Assembly: GCA_013824485.1 (NCBI GenBank)
Contig: PNNY01000001.1
Location: forward strand, 12,017-76,016
Reading direction: 5' to 3'
Length of the DNA stretch: 64,000 nt
Source: Sideroxydans sp.
GTDB lineage: Bacteria > Pseudomonadota > Gammaproteobacteria > Burkholderiales > Gallionellaceae
A model generated the notes under the pieces. That model worked only from the letters and a program-made list of their open reading frames with translations, made no database searches and was not told the origin of the DNA. Shown here piece by piece: positions 148-4,992 of the stretch (within the stretch, counting starts at the first letter, position 1; the number at the start of each line of letters is the position of its first letter). Position numbers and translations under genes: made by a program.

Positions 148-1065
148 TTGCGAGTACTGAACATTGGATCCATCAATATTGACCATGTTTATGGGGTCGA
201 TTATTTTGTTCGTCCCGGAGAGACTCTGGCCGCCTCCAGCTACAGTACCTTCGCAGGAGGTAAGGGGTTCAATCAGTCCGTAGCATTGGCCCGTGCCGGT
301 GCTGCCACGTGCCATTCGGGGAGAGTCGGGCCGAATGCGGAATGGCTCGTGCGGCGCCTTGGACAGGAATCGGTTGACACGACGTTCGTGCTTGCGGACG
401 AGGTGGCGACAGGACATGCCATAATTCAGGTTGTGCCATCCGGCGAGAACTCTATTGTGCTGTTTGGTGGTGCGAATCGCACCATCACCGAAGCCGACGT
501 CACCACTGCGCTTTCATCATGCTCGTCGGGAGACTACGTTCTACTCCAGAACGAGATAAGCTCGGTGCCATACGCCATTCAATGCGCACACGAAAAGGGA
601 TTGCGGATTGTGTTCAATCCCGCTCCGATGAGCGGCGATGTCCGTCACTACCCGCTGGCCTTGGTGGACATATTCATCCTGAACGAAACGGAGGCGGAAC
701 AACTCACGGGAAGAACCAATCCGGAGGATATCCGCGCCATCATGCGCGAACAGTACCCTCGTTCTGCGACTGTCCTGACGCGTGGAAGCAAAGGCACCGT
801 CTATTTTGACTGTGAATCCGAGCTGAAACAACCTGCTTTGGTCGTAGATGCCGTCGATACGACCGCAGCGGGAGACACCTTCGTGGGCTTCTTCCTAGCT
901 GAACTGATGCATACAGGGGATCCGGCCAAGGCCTTGGCTCTGGGATGTCGTGCTGCGGCAATTTGCGTTACGAGAGTCGGCGCAGCAGATTCCATCCCCC
1001 TGCGGAAAGAAATGGAGACAATCCAACCAGACAAATCCAGGGTACGCGGTAAACCGCGCCGCTGA
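148..1065 (+). CDS. rbsK: ribokinase / PfkB-family sugar kinase, carried as an integron gene cassette
   Basis: GSINID, GGKGFNQ, NETE and DTTAAGDTF PfkB motifs; TTG start; stop lies inside the attC. Confidence 0.85.
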   Translation: MRVLNIGSINIDHVYGVDYFVRPGETLAASSYSTFAGGKGFNQSVALARAGAATCHSGRVGPNAEWLVRRLGQESVDTTFVLADEVATGHAIIQVVPSGENSIVLFGGANRTITEADVTTALSSCSSGDYVLLQNEISSVPYAIQCAHEKGLRIVFNPAPMSGDVRHYPLALVDIFILNETEAEQLTGRTNPEDIRAIMREQYPRSATVLTRGSKGTVYFDCESELKQPALVVDAVDTTAAGDTFVGFFLAELMHTGDPAKALALGCRAAAICVTRVGAADSIPLRKEMETIQPDKSRVRGKPRR

Positions 1066-1080
1066 TTTGCGACGTTGATG
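1021..1080 (+). mobile_element. integron attC site (59-be) of the ribokinase cassette
   Basis: R'' ATCCAAC, 5 nt, L'' AAATCCAG, central hairpin CGCGG-TAAA-CCGCG, L' CTGATTT, 5 nt, R' GTTGATG. L'' has the extra unpaired C. R'' is the exact complement of GTTGGAT at 131-137 where the cassette starts. Confidence 0.88.
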
Positions 1081-1106
1081 TCTGCTCTGCATCAGACAAC
1101 GGGCTT
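1078..1106. repeat. 29-bp imperfect-palindrome site, copy A
   Basis: ATGTCTGC-N12-AACGGGCTT; aligns without gaps to 2678-2706 and to the reverse complement of 2516-2544. Confidence 0.55.
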
Positions 1107-1123
1107 TTTAACGGAATCACATC

Positions 1124-2425
1124 ATGACAAACAACAAGCAAAGCCCCCAAAAACAGGAGATAAAGCAGGAGTACTACCTGAAAGCAGTCACCGAACTGGG
1201 GGACACACGCCCCATCGTGACCGCCTGCGACATCTATTCTCAAACTGGGATCAAGTTGGTCGCTGAGGGCATTCACATCTCCAGTAAGCTACATGATCAC
1301 TTGGTCCACCACAAATTGATGCCGCCGCTCGATCATGCGTTGAAGATGGATGGGATGTTGGATTTCGCACAAATCCAAGCAGATGTACTCGAATTGATAG
1401 CGAACAACGACAAGCTATCCAAAGTGGCGTCGGTACTTCACCAGACAGCACTGTATCAACAACTCGCTATTGATTTCCCGCTCCCTCGTCCGCTCGCCTT
1501 CAAGCTGACTGTGGCTAAAGAGAAGTTCACACGTATCTACAAGCACAGCCTGTTGCTGATGATCTTGAGCGTCTATCTGGGGCGATGTGACAGCCTATCC
1601 ATGAGCGAAGAGGAACACATAGCCATTGCCGCCCTATTCCATGACATTGGACTCTTACACATCGATCCCCAATTACTCGAACCGTCGCACATCATGTCCA
1701 GCGCGGAGAGGCGGCATCTGTATACTCATCCGCTCATTGCCTATTTGCTGTTGGATGAATTCCCCGAGTTACCGAGATCGGTAGCCGATGCGGTGCTGGA
1801 GCATCACGAACGCATGGATGGCAGCGGCTACCCACGTGGTCTGCATTCCGAGAACCTCAGTAGGCTAGGTCAGATACTGGCGGTGGCCGAGTTGGCTGCG
1901 AAGGCGTTTGATTCCGCCGACAACAAGCTACCTTGGAAAAAGCTGGATGTGATGCTCAAACTGAATTCCAGAAAATATGGGAGCGGATTGATCGGACATC
2001 TCAACATCTTCCGCGACAACGCATCAGATACGAACCTGAACGGGCAAGAAACAGCGCAGTTGGTCGAGCAGGTGAACCTAGTCGCCAAGTTGTTCGACGA
2101 TTTCAATCGTCATTCAGGCCCCGCGAATCGCGATTCCGTCTTTCACTTTGCACAAACACGCTTGGCCGAGTTACAGCTCAGCCTGTTCGAGGCCGGATTC
2201 GACCCGCGCAACCCCAATGCGCTGATCAAAATAATCATGGATGATCCAAGCTGCACGGCAGAATATGCCCCGCTCTTGGGGGAGGCTATCTGGCAATTCA
2301 ATTCATTAATCCTAGAGATCTCGCGACAATGGCCTGAACCGGTCGATAAGTCAGAACATGAGAATGCCAAATCAGAACACCCTTGGCTGGGAGAGATGAA
2401 GATGGTTTTGTTCGCAGCAGTCTAG
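1124..2425 (+). CDS. HD-GYP domain protein (c-di-GMP phosphodiesterase family, possibly degenerate)
   Basis: FHDIG and HHERMDGSGYPRGL motifs. Confidence 0.85.
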   Translation: MTNNKQSPQKQEIKQEYYLKAVTELGDTRPIVTACDIYSQTGIKLVAEGIHISSKLHDHLVHHKLMPPLDHALKMDGMLDFAQIQADVLELIANNDKLSKVASVLHQTALYQQLAIDFPLPRPLAFKLTVAKEKFTRIYKHSLLLMILSVYLGRCDSLSMSEEEHIAIAALFHDIGLLHIDPQLLEPSHIMSSAERRHLYTHPLIAYLLLDEFPELPRSVADAVLEHHERMDGSGYPRGLHSENLSRLGQILAVAELAAKAFDSADNKLPWKKLDVMLKLNSRKYGSGLIGHLNIFRDNASDTNLNGQETAQLVEQVNLVAKLFDDFNRHSGPANRDSVFHFAQTRLAELQLSLFEAGFDPRNPNALIKIIMDDPSCTAEYAPLLGEAIWQFNSLILEISRQWPEPVDKSEHENAKSEHPWLGEMKMVLFAAV

Positions 2426-2473
2426 CAACCACACACGCTGTGCGCTTTTGCGAACTTACAGAGAAGGTTGCAA

Positions 2474-2706
2474 CAGGCTGCGAAGGTCTTGCAAGCGAAG
2501 ATATGCTTCCTAGCGACGACCGCTTCAGTACTGCATGCGGACATCCCTCCACCCAACGCAGTCATCCTTTTGAAAATATTCCCACTGTCTCTTCTGGCCG
2601 AGGAAGCGACAGACGGCAATTCGCCTTTTAGAGACATTGGTGATTTGCGGATATACGAATCAGCTCTGATCGTAGCTATGTCTGCCTCGAATCCAGAAAC
2701 GGTCGT
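2474..2706. repeat. cluster of 29-bp imperfect-palindrome sites
   Basis: 2516-2544 ACGACCGCT-N12-GCGGACAT and 2678-2706 ATGTCTGC-N12-AACGGTCGT; degenerate copies at 2474-2502, ~2585-2613 and ~2612-2637. Confidence 0.6.
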
Positions 2707-3622: not shown

Positions 3623-3957
3623 TCGATCAACAATCAGTTCAAAAACTCTAGCCGGCAATCACTTCAAAAAAATGGGGACCGTAGTTTGCGCATCCGCATG
3701 TCATCCAGCATGCGTTGACGTAACGTGGAAACGGACGAGGTCGATGCAGTCATAATTCTGCTCCTCTTGGTGAATGAGGCGGATTGCCTCGCTTACCAAG
3801 ACTGGGAAACAGAAACGCTGTTTCAATCCCTTCAAGAAAACACTGCTATATGTTCGGAGTGCCAATTACCGCGAAGCGGTTTAGTCCTCAGCCGGCAAGA
3901 AGAAGTGGGTATCCGGATTTTCCGGTGGGTGTAGTAATAGACCATACTGATGCATCA

Positions 3958-3986
3958 TTGACGAACTCCCCTATTAGGGGAATAAT
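3958..3986 (+). promoter_or_regulatory. mqsRA promoter with palindromic operator
   Basis: TTGACG-N17-AATAAT enclosing TCCCCTA-T-TAGGGGA (3967-3981), analogous to MqsA operators. Confidence 0.6.
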
Positions 3987-3993
3987 ATCCATC

Positions 3994-4293
3994 ATGGAAA
4001 AGAACAAACCGCATTACTTGCTTAAAGCGATTCAGGCGCAAATGACCACGCCGGAGGCAATGAACCTGACGATTACGGCGCTTACGGGAATTCGTGCTGC
4101 GGGCATGGCTCAGGCGGATGCGTTGGCTGTAGTACAAGGCTTAACAGCGGTGGATTTTTATAAAAGCATGACGACCAGTGCAGATCATCGTGTATGGCAG
4201 GATGTGTATCACGCCGAATGGCAGAGCGTTACGCTGTACATCAAGTTTCAACAGGCTGGCGAATATTTTGTAATTTCATTCAAGGAGCGATGA
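3994..4293 (+). CDS. mqsR: MqsR-family mRNA interferase toxin
   Basis: MEKNKPHY...DFYKSMTT.ADHRVWQDVY...LYIK...VISFKER. Confidence 0.92.
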   Translation: MEKNKPHYLLKAIQAQMTTPEAMNLTITALTGIRAAGMAQADALAVVQGLTAVDFYKSMTTSADHRVWQDVYHAEWQSVTLYIKFQQAGEYFVISFKER

Positions 4294-4294
4294 G

Positions 4295-4699
4295 ATGAAG
4301 AAGAGTAAATGGAACGGCCAAGTGTGCCCAGTCTGCGCGGAAGGTGTGTTGCATGATGGCATCAAGACATTGGCGCAGGAATACAAGGGACACGCCTATG
4401 AATTGAAGATGCGAGGTGCGTTTTGCGACAAATGCGATGAGGCAGTGCTAGTTTATGACGCAGCCGAAGAAGCCGCGTGGCTTGCGTTCCGCGACCAGGT
4501 GGATCGACTGGCAGCGAGTGAGTTGGAGTCCATCCGCAAACGCTTAAAACTCACTCAGGCGCAAGCCGCCAAACTAGCGGGTGGGGGGAAGAATGCCTTC
4601 TCTCGCTATGAGCGCGGACAGGCCAAGCCGGTGGCGGCGGTTATCAATCTGTTCAAATTGCTGGATAAACACCCTGACCTGATCAAGGAACTAACATGA
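4295..4699 (+). CDS. mqsA: MqsA-family antitoxin (zinc finger plus HTH)
   Basis: CPVC...CDKC and LTQAQAAKLAGGGKNAFSRYERG. Confidence 0.92.
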   Translation: MKKSKWNGQVCPVCAEGVLHDGIKTLAQEYKGHAYELKMRGAFCDKCDEAVLVYDAAEEAAWLAFRDQVDRLAASELESIRKRLKLTQAQAAKLAGGGKNAFSRYERGQAKPVAAVINLFKLLDKHPDLIKELT

Positions 4700-4887
4700 G
4701 AGACACGACAACCTATTACGATGTGGCAGAACACCTGAGAACACCGGAAGAAGGTAAATTGTATTTGGAGGCTTGCCAAGAGGAGTCCCGTGGAGATGCC
4801 GATTTCATGGATAAGGCTCGAAACGACGTTGCTAGGGCAGCACGCAGGTTTAGCTATAGCAATCCATCAAACCAAGATCAAATTTAG
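4696..4887 (+). pseudogene. truncated addiction-module antidote protein (N-terminal half, no HTH)
   Basis: YDVAEHLRTPEE...YLEAC...GDA...DVARA matches the antidote N-terminus; ends at the right TIR. Confidence 0.6.
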
Positions 4888-4992
4888 CTATCACCCACCG
4901 GAAAATCCGGATACCCGAAGAAGTTTGTAGTGACAAATCACAAGGTAGCCGGAAGGACTAATTCACTGAAGGCTATTGGACGTAGACAAGGC

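Follow-up and report, generated by a model that had tools for sequence, protein, structure and literature searches.

Inverted composite end-units at the borders of putatively exchangeable gene modules in chromosomes of an iron-oxidising betaproteobacterial genus

Near the left edge of a 64-kb stretch of a Sideroxydans sp. draft genome (contig C1, positions 12017-76016; hereafter the window), nucleotides 2512-2710 hold two copies of a composite DNA element joined back to back, which we interpret as the right border of one gene module and the left border of its neighbour. We propose that such elements, called end-units and measuring about 95-105 bp, bound swappable chromosomal modules, and that these modules are replaced through cassette exchange by site-specific recombination. 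We give this reading a probability of roughly 0.6. An initial annotation, made from the letters of the window, had aligned three 29-bp sites named A (1078-1106, plus strand), B (2678-2706, plus strand) and C (2516-2544, minus strand), and suggested that they may form one family of recombination sites bracketing a gene for an HD-GYP protein. All three 29-mers exist exactly as written. As a family, however, they hold only in part, with B and C forming the inner sites of the two end-units and A falling outside.

Anatomy and distribution of the end-unit

The search pattern offered with the initial annotation was derived from sites A, B and C themselves, and a shuffle test within the window is therefore weak (3 found, 0.46 expected). 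Scanning the whole source draft genome (G000; 2.07 Mb, 197 contigs, 90% complete) with this pattern returned a fourth exact match and several one-mismatch matches that each fit on both strands, and these exposed the true palindrome, ATGTCCGCT-N11-AGCGGACAT. When up to three mismatches are allowed, G000 carries nine such sites at a spacer of 11 nt and zero to two at every other spacer from 3 to 24 nt. The best of them are all intergenic and have flanks that can be aligned with one another, and iterated nhmmer searches of the genome recovered another complete copy at C1:3786-3990, 10.7 kb upstream, together with half copies and fragments on other contigs. A covariance model of the ~95-nt end-unit, R1 (alignments A1 and A2), replaced BLAST-level searching, which was too insensitive.

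Within the same GTDB genus, R1 identifies the unit in 49 of 69 genomes (1-14 copies each, about three per genome), whereas 120 genomes of the same order outside the genus yield three weak matches. The scan of the genome and its relatives that the initial annotation had called for thus finds units of the B and C type far beyond chance. These counts are underestimates, and R1 detects a short-linker variant poorly. Examples of this variant, with about 20 nt between inner and tip site compared with about 45, reside at G000:C90:5545-5642, C11:25028-25122 and C83:8253-8326, and at L149:1490-1570.

Read from the cargo outwards, an end-unit is composed of an inner site, a linker of about 35-45 nt containing TTTCAGCAAA, and a tip site. 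The inner site (aACGwCCGCT-N11-AGCGGACAT) has inverted arms, and the tip site (GTCTCTT-aTGGCCGAnnn-nNGNC) exhibits the same build, with GTCTCTT followed by 11 nt and then A-G-n-G-A-C. The outer arm of the tip site is weak, and at solitary ends (30 junctions) only NGNC is left of it. Four blocks are conserved among 46 aligned copies: aACG(A/T)CCGCT and AGCGGACAT in the inner site, TTTCAGCAAA(T/C)C.CC in the linker, and GTCTCTTatGGCCGA in the tip. Of these blocks the last shows the strongest conservation, and the longest conserved stretch of the unit measures 15 nt.

Both units of the window are strong matches to R1. The plus-strand unit occupies 2512-2606 (80.1 bits, E = 2e-22). Its inner site is site C (2516-2544), which reads ACGACCGCT-N11-TGCGGACAT on the plus strand and scores 19.8 bits against a weight matrix built from 41 inner sites of genomes other than G000. 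Its tip site is found on the plus strand at 2587-2610 (GTCTCTT-cTGGCCGAgga-AGCGAC), with the core TGGCCGA at 2595-2601. A 9-nt gap, CGACAGACG (2607-2615), carries the outer arms of both tip sites back to back. The tip site of the minus-strand unit follows at 2611-2635, where direct reading and alignment A3 reveal a degenerate core, with TTCGCC in place of TTCGGCC. This second unit spans 2616-2710 on the minus strand (81.9 bits, E = 6e-23), and its inner site is site B (2678-2706; minus-strand reading ACGACCGTT-N11-GGCAGACAT; 24.6 bits). Two of the three degenerate site copies reported earlier, at about 2585-2613 and 2612-2637, correspond to the tip sites of the abutting units, but the third, at 2474-2502, lies outside the units and is unsupported.

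We considered whether the arms might pair as hairpins rather than serve as sequence. Nine arm pairs examined in 58 copies exhibit no covariation above that of shuffles, and two arm positions are unpaired in 27 and 33 of 52 copies, respectively. For these reasons we read the arms as conserved in sequence, which suggests that they are the half-sites at which a protein dimer would sit on double-stranded DNA. Rfam contains no match to the unit at its gathering cut-off, nor when E values up to 5 are allowed, and folds predicted for the whole compact joint are moderately more stable than those of shuffles (z = -1.9 to -4.1).

Modules, their cargo and their replacement

A module carries one end-unit per side in inverted orientation, with the tips (the GGCCGA side) facing outwards and the 29-bp inner sites facing the cargo. 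This rule emerges from the genus-wide list of neighbouring units, where 19 of 21 pairs lying 0.3-10 kb apart have a minus-strand unit followed by a plus-strand unit, one pair has the reverse order and one has two plus-strand units. The minus-plus order likewise holds for 8 of 11 pairs lying 10-40 kb apart. Plus-minus pairs less than 300 nt apart occur only as compact joints. There are four of these (two in G000, one at G066:C21 and one at G014:C18), each with a 9-nt gap, whose sequence is similar among the joints that were read. Between paired ends lie from 1.3 kb to about 17 kb of cargo, and both ends of one module often share linker sequence that is absent from other modules. The orientation of units is independent of the strand of the cargo genes, which argues against a role as promoter, terminator or RNA.

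The plus-strand unit of the window is the right end of a 10.7-kb module that extends from C1:3892 to C1:14622, the latter being window position 2606. Its left end-unit, recognized by R1 and by the pairing rule, is located at C1:3892-3986, about 8.1 kb before the window. Seven co-oriented genes lie between these ends. The first three encode a periplasmic sugar-binding protein, a dCache-PAS-GGDEF protein and a LamB porin, and the last four encode a second binding protein, a GGDEF-EAL protein, a PfkB-family sugar kinase (window 148-1065, plus strand; Pfam PF00294, E = 8e-47) and the HD-GYP-type (HD_5) protein (1124-2425, plus strand; PF13487, E = 1e-20). The HD-GYP gene had been viewed as a single-gene cassette, but it is the final gene of this longer module, and site A marks no boundary. 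Its homologues in other Gallionella (49-67% identity) have different neighbours and no unit nearby. The next module, to the right of 2616, begins with an unknown 170-aa gene and an HTH gene and continues onwards; a search with R1 with filters off found no further unit in the window that might represent its right end.

Across modules the cargo includes genes for GGDEF, GGDEF-EAL and HD-GYP proteins, a CheB-CheR fusion, HipA, binding proteins, LamB porin, PfkB, subunits of haem-copper oxidases, NnrS and parts of efflux systems. Pfam scans of the cargo genes of about ten modules revealed no transposase, although the genus was not searched exhaustively, and the sole recombinase gene encountered in any module encodes a small tyrosine recombinase. 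No tRNA genes were found at 20 module loci, and single modules also reside at intergenic spots where the sequence beside the end resembles the outer arm only loosely. At one locus (L149:3425-3470, on G050:C43), the 3' half of a tRNA, comprising T arm, acceptor strand and CCA, is visible by eye abutting a module-end tip, though ARAGORN calls none. Some modules may belong to tRNA-linked islands.

Comparison of related genomes reveals that modules come and go. One spot between two convergent genes is filled with 6.5 kb in G011, with 1.9 and 8.6 kb in G050 and with about 15 kb in G066, but it is empty in G045, G079 and G000, where some 20-30 nt separate the flanking homologies. The flanks in G011 and G045 are 91-95% identical, and the modules of G011 and G050 have no cargo in common. 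A second filled-versus-empty comparison, for a module of G056, failed because its right flank is not syntenic elsewhere.

Replacement of a module is evident at the joint in the window itself. Contigs from four metagenome studies (groundwater, landfill and drinking water) are 99.8-100% identical to the window from position 2587 or 2595 rightwards over 1.2-1.3 kb. Positions 1-2400 are not covered by the contigs of these studies, and we use this missing cover in the four runs only jointly with contigs that bridge into other sequence. A contig of run X6 leads leftwards into a different plus-strand unit, with ...CAGCGTCACTAA before the joint and TGGCCGAGG after it. JGI contig L228 is 99.8% identical to the window over 1,326 nt rightwards, and on the left it carries another plus-strand unit (...CAGCGTCTCTTA, again joined to TGGCCGAGG) and about 7 kb of unrelated cargo. 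Both contigs differ from the window up to 2594, and identity begins at T2595, the first base of TGGCCGA; contigs of runs X1 and X8 begin at 2595. We map the exchange point on this basis to the core of the tip site, which is about 50 nt further out than the 29-bp sites to which exchange had initially been ascribed. The earlier idea that the sites delimit shuffled single-gene modules survives in modified form, in that the structures bound modules that are gained, lost or replaced between strains, and both presence or absence and swapping of modules map to units, but the modules are not single genes.

A candidate recombinase and competing explanations

A mechanism of the tyrosine-recombinase type is the best reading, and a search for tyrosine recombinases in five unit-rich relatives yielded a candidate enzyme of 207-217 aa (PF00589). 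Sixteen of the 31 copies of its gene in the genus lie within 10 kb of a unit, all 16 on the cargo side; by a rough estimate (about three units per genome) chance would place about 2% of copies that near. The complete genome G072 has 14 units and two copies of the gene. In contig L228, the module that takes the place of the HD-GYP module carries a 217-aa member, whose stop codon is 173 nt from the end-unit of that module. Its alignment with XerD covers the catalytic domain and takes in the HxxR, LLGH and Y motifs, and only about 50 residues precede that domain. As to the co-occurrence with one recombinase family that was to be tested for these sites, 16 of the 31 copies of the small recombinase gene reside inside modules, and neither G000 nor at least 12 further genomes with units encode the protein. 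Likewise, the island recombinase that had been invoked is encoded neither in the island nor elsewhere in G000, and the candidate is found in modules of other genomes.

A plausible course of events would be as follows. The recombinase would bind the arms as dimers, with the tip site acting as crossover site, TGGCCGA as the exchanged core, and the 29-bp inner site probably serving as an accessory site. Because the two ends of a module are inverted, simple excision would be barred, and a module would instead be swapped between two DNA molecules by two crossovers, one at each end. The small tyrosine recombinase may be the catalyst and would then act in trans on modules that lack a recombinase, in which case the modules of G000 would be non-autonomous. 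The spacing of the sites, 7-11-7 (or 11-7-11), is unusual for the core site of a tyrosine recombinase, and both breakpoints fall at the edge of TGGCCGA.

Several observations weigh against exchange by site-specific recombination or against this particular enzyme. First, the exchange point is based on two informative left partners, and it lies within the 15-nt longest conserved stretch of the unit, where homologous recombination would also tend to break. Second, at the convergent-gene spot the difference between filled and empty genomes extends some 20 nt past GGCCGA, which makes the exact ends provisional. Third, a simple model in which circles integrate through inverted asymmetric cores fails to give the ends that are observed, and the proposal does not account for the first entry of a module into an empty site. 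Fourth, the candidate is linked to the sites by co-location, and it is missing from G000 (at 90% completeness) and the other unit-bearing genomes mentioned above. Its family is also very large, with at least 8,000 candidates (all E <= 1e-10), and most of the 120 matches listed have 75-96% identity. Islands with the recombinase in the other genera that were sampled have neither these units nor long inverted repeats around the recombinase gene. The small recombinase may accordingly be frequent island cargo and nothing more.

The alternative that survives best, though we consider it unlikely, is that the units are passive portable homology, comparable to REP, REPIN or neisserial mosaic repeats, and that modules are swapped once DNA has been taken up, by ordinary homologous recombination and without an enzyme of their own. 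Such a view would accommodate breakpoints within the most conserved block of the unit, the presence of units in a genome that has no candidate recombinase, and the structure of the compact joint, which forms a long imperfect palindrome like that of a REPIN. However, the shared block amounts to only about 15 nt, and this is short for RecA-dependent exchange. Passive homology also has no need for the minus-plus pairing rule, the fixed 9-nt abutment or two 7-11-7 sites per end, and it does not predict a recombinase gene inside modules far above chance. Moreover, G000 has no match to the REP-associated Y1 transposase (RAYT, PF01797).

A second alternative, also improbable and ranked behind the first, regards the units as long terminal inverted repeats of non-autonomous transposons that are moved by cut-and-paste or replicative transposition, with a DDE transposase encoded elsewhere and the symmetric sites serving as its terminal and subterminal binding sites. 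The ends are indeed inverted and about 95 bp long, the linker is often common to both ends of one module, modules hold cargo only, and site occupancy varies between genomes. In addition, an element of the IS30 family resides at one unit copy in G000. Against this view, no direct repeat that might represent a target duplication was found in 15 modules at offsets from -6 to +9 and lengths of 2-9 nt, and the cargo scans described above lack a transposase. Abutting ends have a constant 9-nt gap of similar sequence, and exchange occurs inside the end, at TGGCCGA, instead of at its outer edge. The IS30-family element, for its part, has its own unrelated 26-nt inverted repeats, and we dropped it as a parent of the units. 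It is found directly against an end-unit copy (G000:C141:2537-3763, L091; HTH_38 and rve transposase), at the place where the inner site is expected. Relatives of IS30 prefer palindromic targets.

Distinctly less probable is the interpretation given in the initial annotation, wherein A, B and C are equivalent sites that bracket an HD-GYP cassette, and the cluster at 2474-2706 represents scars of emptied cassettes. Sites A and B are identical at 15 of 17 arm positions, A is oriented like the left end of a module to its right, and the 9-mer TGATTTGCG occurs upstream of both. Nevertheless, site A lacks both linker and tip, gives no match to R1 even with filters off and E up to 10, and scores 13.7 bits, a background value that falls below those of B and C and is reached by about 3-11 matches in shuffled genomes. 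By local alignment, 2.6% of random 125-nt windows fit the B unit equally well. The attC R' box said to lie beside A reads GTTGATG, a misfit to GTTRRRY. The true left end of the module lies 10.7 kb upstream, and the cluster consists of two complete ends joined across the constant gap, not scars. This interpretation is largely refuted, and site A, which is not shown to belong with B and C, resembles them by chance or is, at the very most, the decayed remnant of an inner site.

The weakest alternative, and a very improbable one, is that the sites are transcription-factor operators or the units structured RNAs, for although a palindrome with T-N11-A spacing, the intergenic location of every copy and the somewhat stable predicted folds would suit a regulatory role, the orientation of units tracks the module and not the gene strand, units stand at operon 3' ends as often as at 5' ends (a check on the promoter-position explanation), neither an Rfam match nor arm covariation is apparent, and presence or absence of whole modules maps to units.

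Returning to site-specific cassette exchange, a more specific proposal is that this is a natural exchange system so far undescribed, in which modules of 1-17 kb or more with inverted composite sites are swapped between genomes by a minimal tyrosine recombinase of about 210 aa. This enzyme would lack the N-terminal DNA-binding domain that is usual in such proteins, and, encoded in some modules, it would act in trans on the others. We advance this tentatively, and it would fail more probably than it would stand. More generally, the modules described here would account for the gain and loss of whole operons by the chromosomes of Gallionella, a group of iron oxidisers that matter in the environment and are difficult to grow, with no phage, integron or transposase involved. 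The operons encountered serve c-di-GMP signalling, transport, toxin-antitoxin functions and respiration through oxidases. Next to the pdif modules, for which the mechanism is under debate, this would be the second natural instance of exchange between inverted sites, and one with sharply defined sites, a mapped exchange point and a small candidate enzyme. Furthermore, a compact recombinase with a long and specific composite site could serve cassette exchange in the laboratory.

Relation to known systems and additional observations

The sites are neither attC nor dif, as had been stated initially, since they have no attC boxes and no ATAA-centre-TTAT motif. By analogy, the system closest in logic appears to be that of the pdif modules (xrs cassettes) on Acinetobacter plasmids. 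These carry adaptive genes, including toxin-antitoxin pairs, between mostly inverted sites that are acted upon by XerC/XerD; exchange is thought to be intermolecular, and the pdif site has two binding arms around a central region, with the motif ATAA-centre-TTAT (PMC11705084). The likeness, which is one of function and not of membership, resides in inverted framing sites, swapping between molecules and arrays of neighbouring modules, and the mechanism we envisage resembles a cointegrate-and-resolve model proposed for pdif modules. There are also clear differences. Sites A, B and C and the tip sites lack the 11-6-11 build that gives Xer sites their dimensions, as well as the pdif motif. The ends described here measure about 95-105 bp and contain two symmetric sites and a linker, in contrast to a single short Xer site. 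Neighbouring pdif modules share one pdif site, whereas the modules described here own both of their ends and abut back to back. Finally, our modules are chromosomal and belong to an iron-oxidising betaproteobacterial genus.

Integrons offer another comparison, with promoter-poor cargo, imperfectly palindromic sites, and arrays that can lack an integrase. However, the consensus of 46 unit copies contains no GTTRRRY/RYYYAAC boxes, and the compact joint, at about 200 nt, exceeds every attC in length. The ends are inverted and not direct, and a module may contain seven or more genes, which can lie on either strand. A search of G000 for an integron integrase gave no match above the model cut-off (TIGR02249; best score 83.8 bits compared with 265), and the matches are Xer-like genes.

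A crossover site accompanied by accessory sites is also known from the res sites of Tn3 and gamma-delta and from the TnpI site of Tn4430, where one recombinase binds several similar inverted-repeat sites within about 100 bp, only one of which is the crossover site. Such sites occur once per transposon, resolve cointegrates and frame no cargo, and neither G000 nor the five unit-rich relatives have a match to a serine recombinase (PF00239). Cargo elements flanked by miniature inverted-repeat transposable elements or derived from Tn3 (mobile insertion cassettes, IMU-type composites), as well as REPINs, resemble our modules in carrying transposase-less cargo between inverted repeats or in forming a palindromic doublet joint; they differ from what we observe, which is no target duplication, no matching transposase, no RAYT and an exchange point inside the end. 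In laboratory recombinase-mediated cassette exchange with Cre or Flp, inverted lox or FRT sites block excision and allow replacement by two crossovers. The inverted ends and two-crossover replacement proposed here have the same logic, although the laboratory system is engineered and the one described here would be natural, with its own sites.

Other recombinase genes were noted near units. A 322-aa Xer-like tyrosine recombinase is encoded 630-770 nt outside a module end at G066:C21:12259-13224 and at G065:C9:915-1880, and a 45% identical homologue resides on contig C59 of G000. Xer-like recombinases of 322-352 aa beside units in G066 and G065 were dropped as candidates, and the DNA between gene and unit is not conserved. 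Genes for P4-type integrases of about 400 aa are positioned immediately beyond a module end, with their transcription directed at that end, at G000:C60:9577-10770 (L092) and G072:C1:2490310-2491518 (L189).

Three resemblances of short sequences to known elements were likewise set aside. The loop sequence CAGACGGCA looks like a neisserial DNA uptake sequence, but no such word is over-represented in G000. The sequence GTCTCTTAT recalls the mosaic end of Tn5, but its polarity is wrong for the modules observed. The arms are reminiscent of a gamma-delta resolvase half-site (putative consensus TGTCYNNTA), and no serine recombinase is present.

Two further features of this genome were noted. The stretch at 3899-4916 of the window, which carries mqsR/mqsA, does not occur in contigs from three metagenome studies, where a joint from 3898 to 4917 skips 1018 nt and 8 nt fit either side; JGI contig L228 lacks it as well. 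Because it is missing from these contigs, we regard the stretch as a separate insertion that is variable between near-identical strains. In addition, overlapping 14-mers with 12-14 occurrences each tile a repeat of G000 that contains roughly TTCAAAGTTCTAAGCAAGACAAGGCGCGA, which may be a CRISPR or another interspersed repeat.

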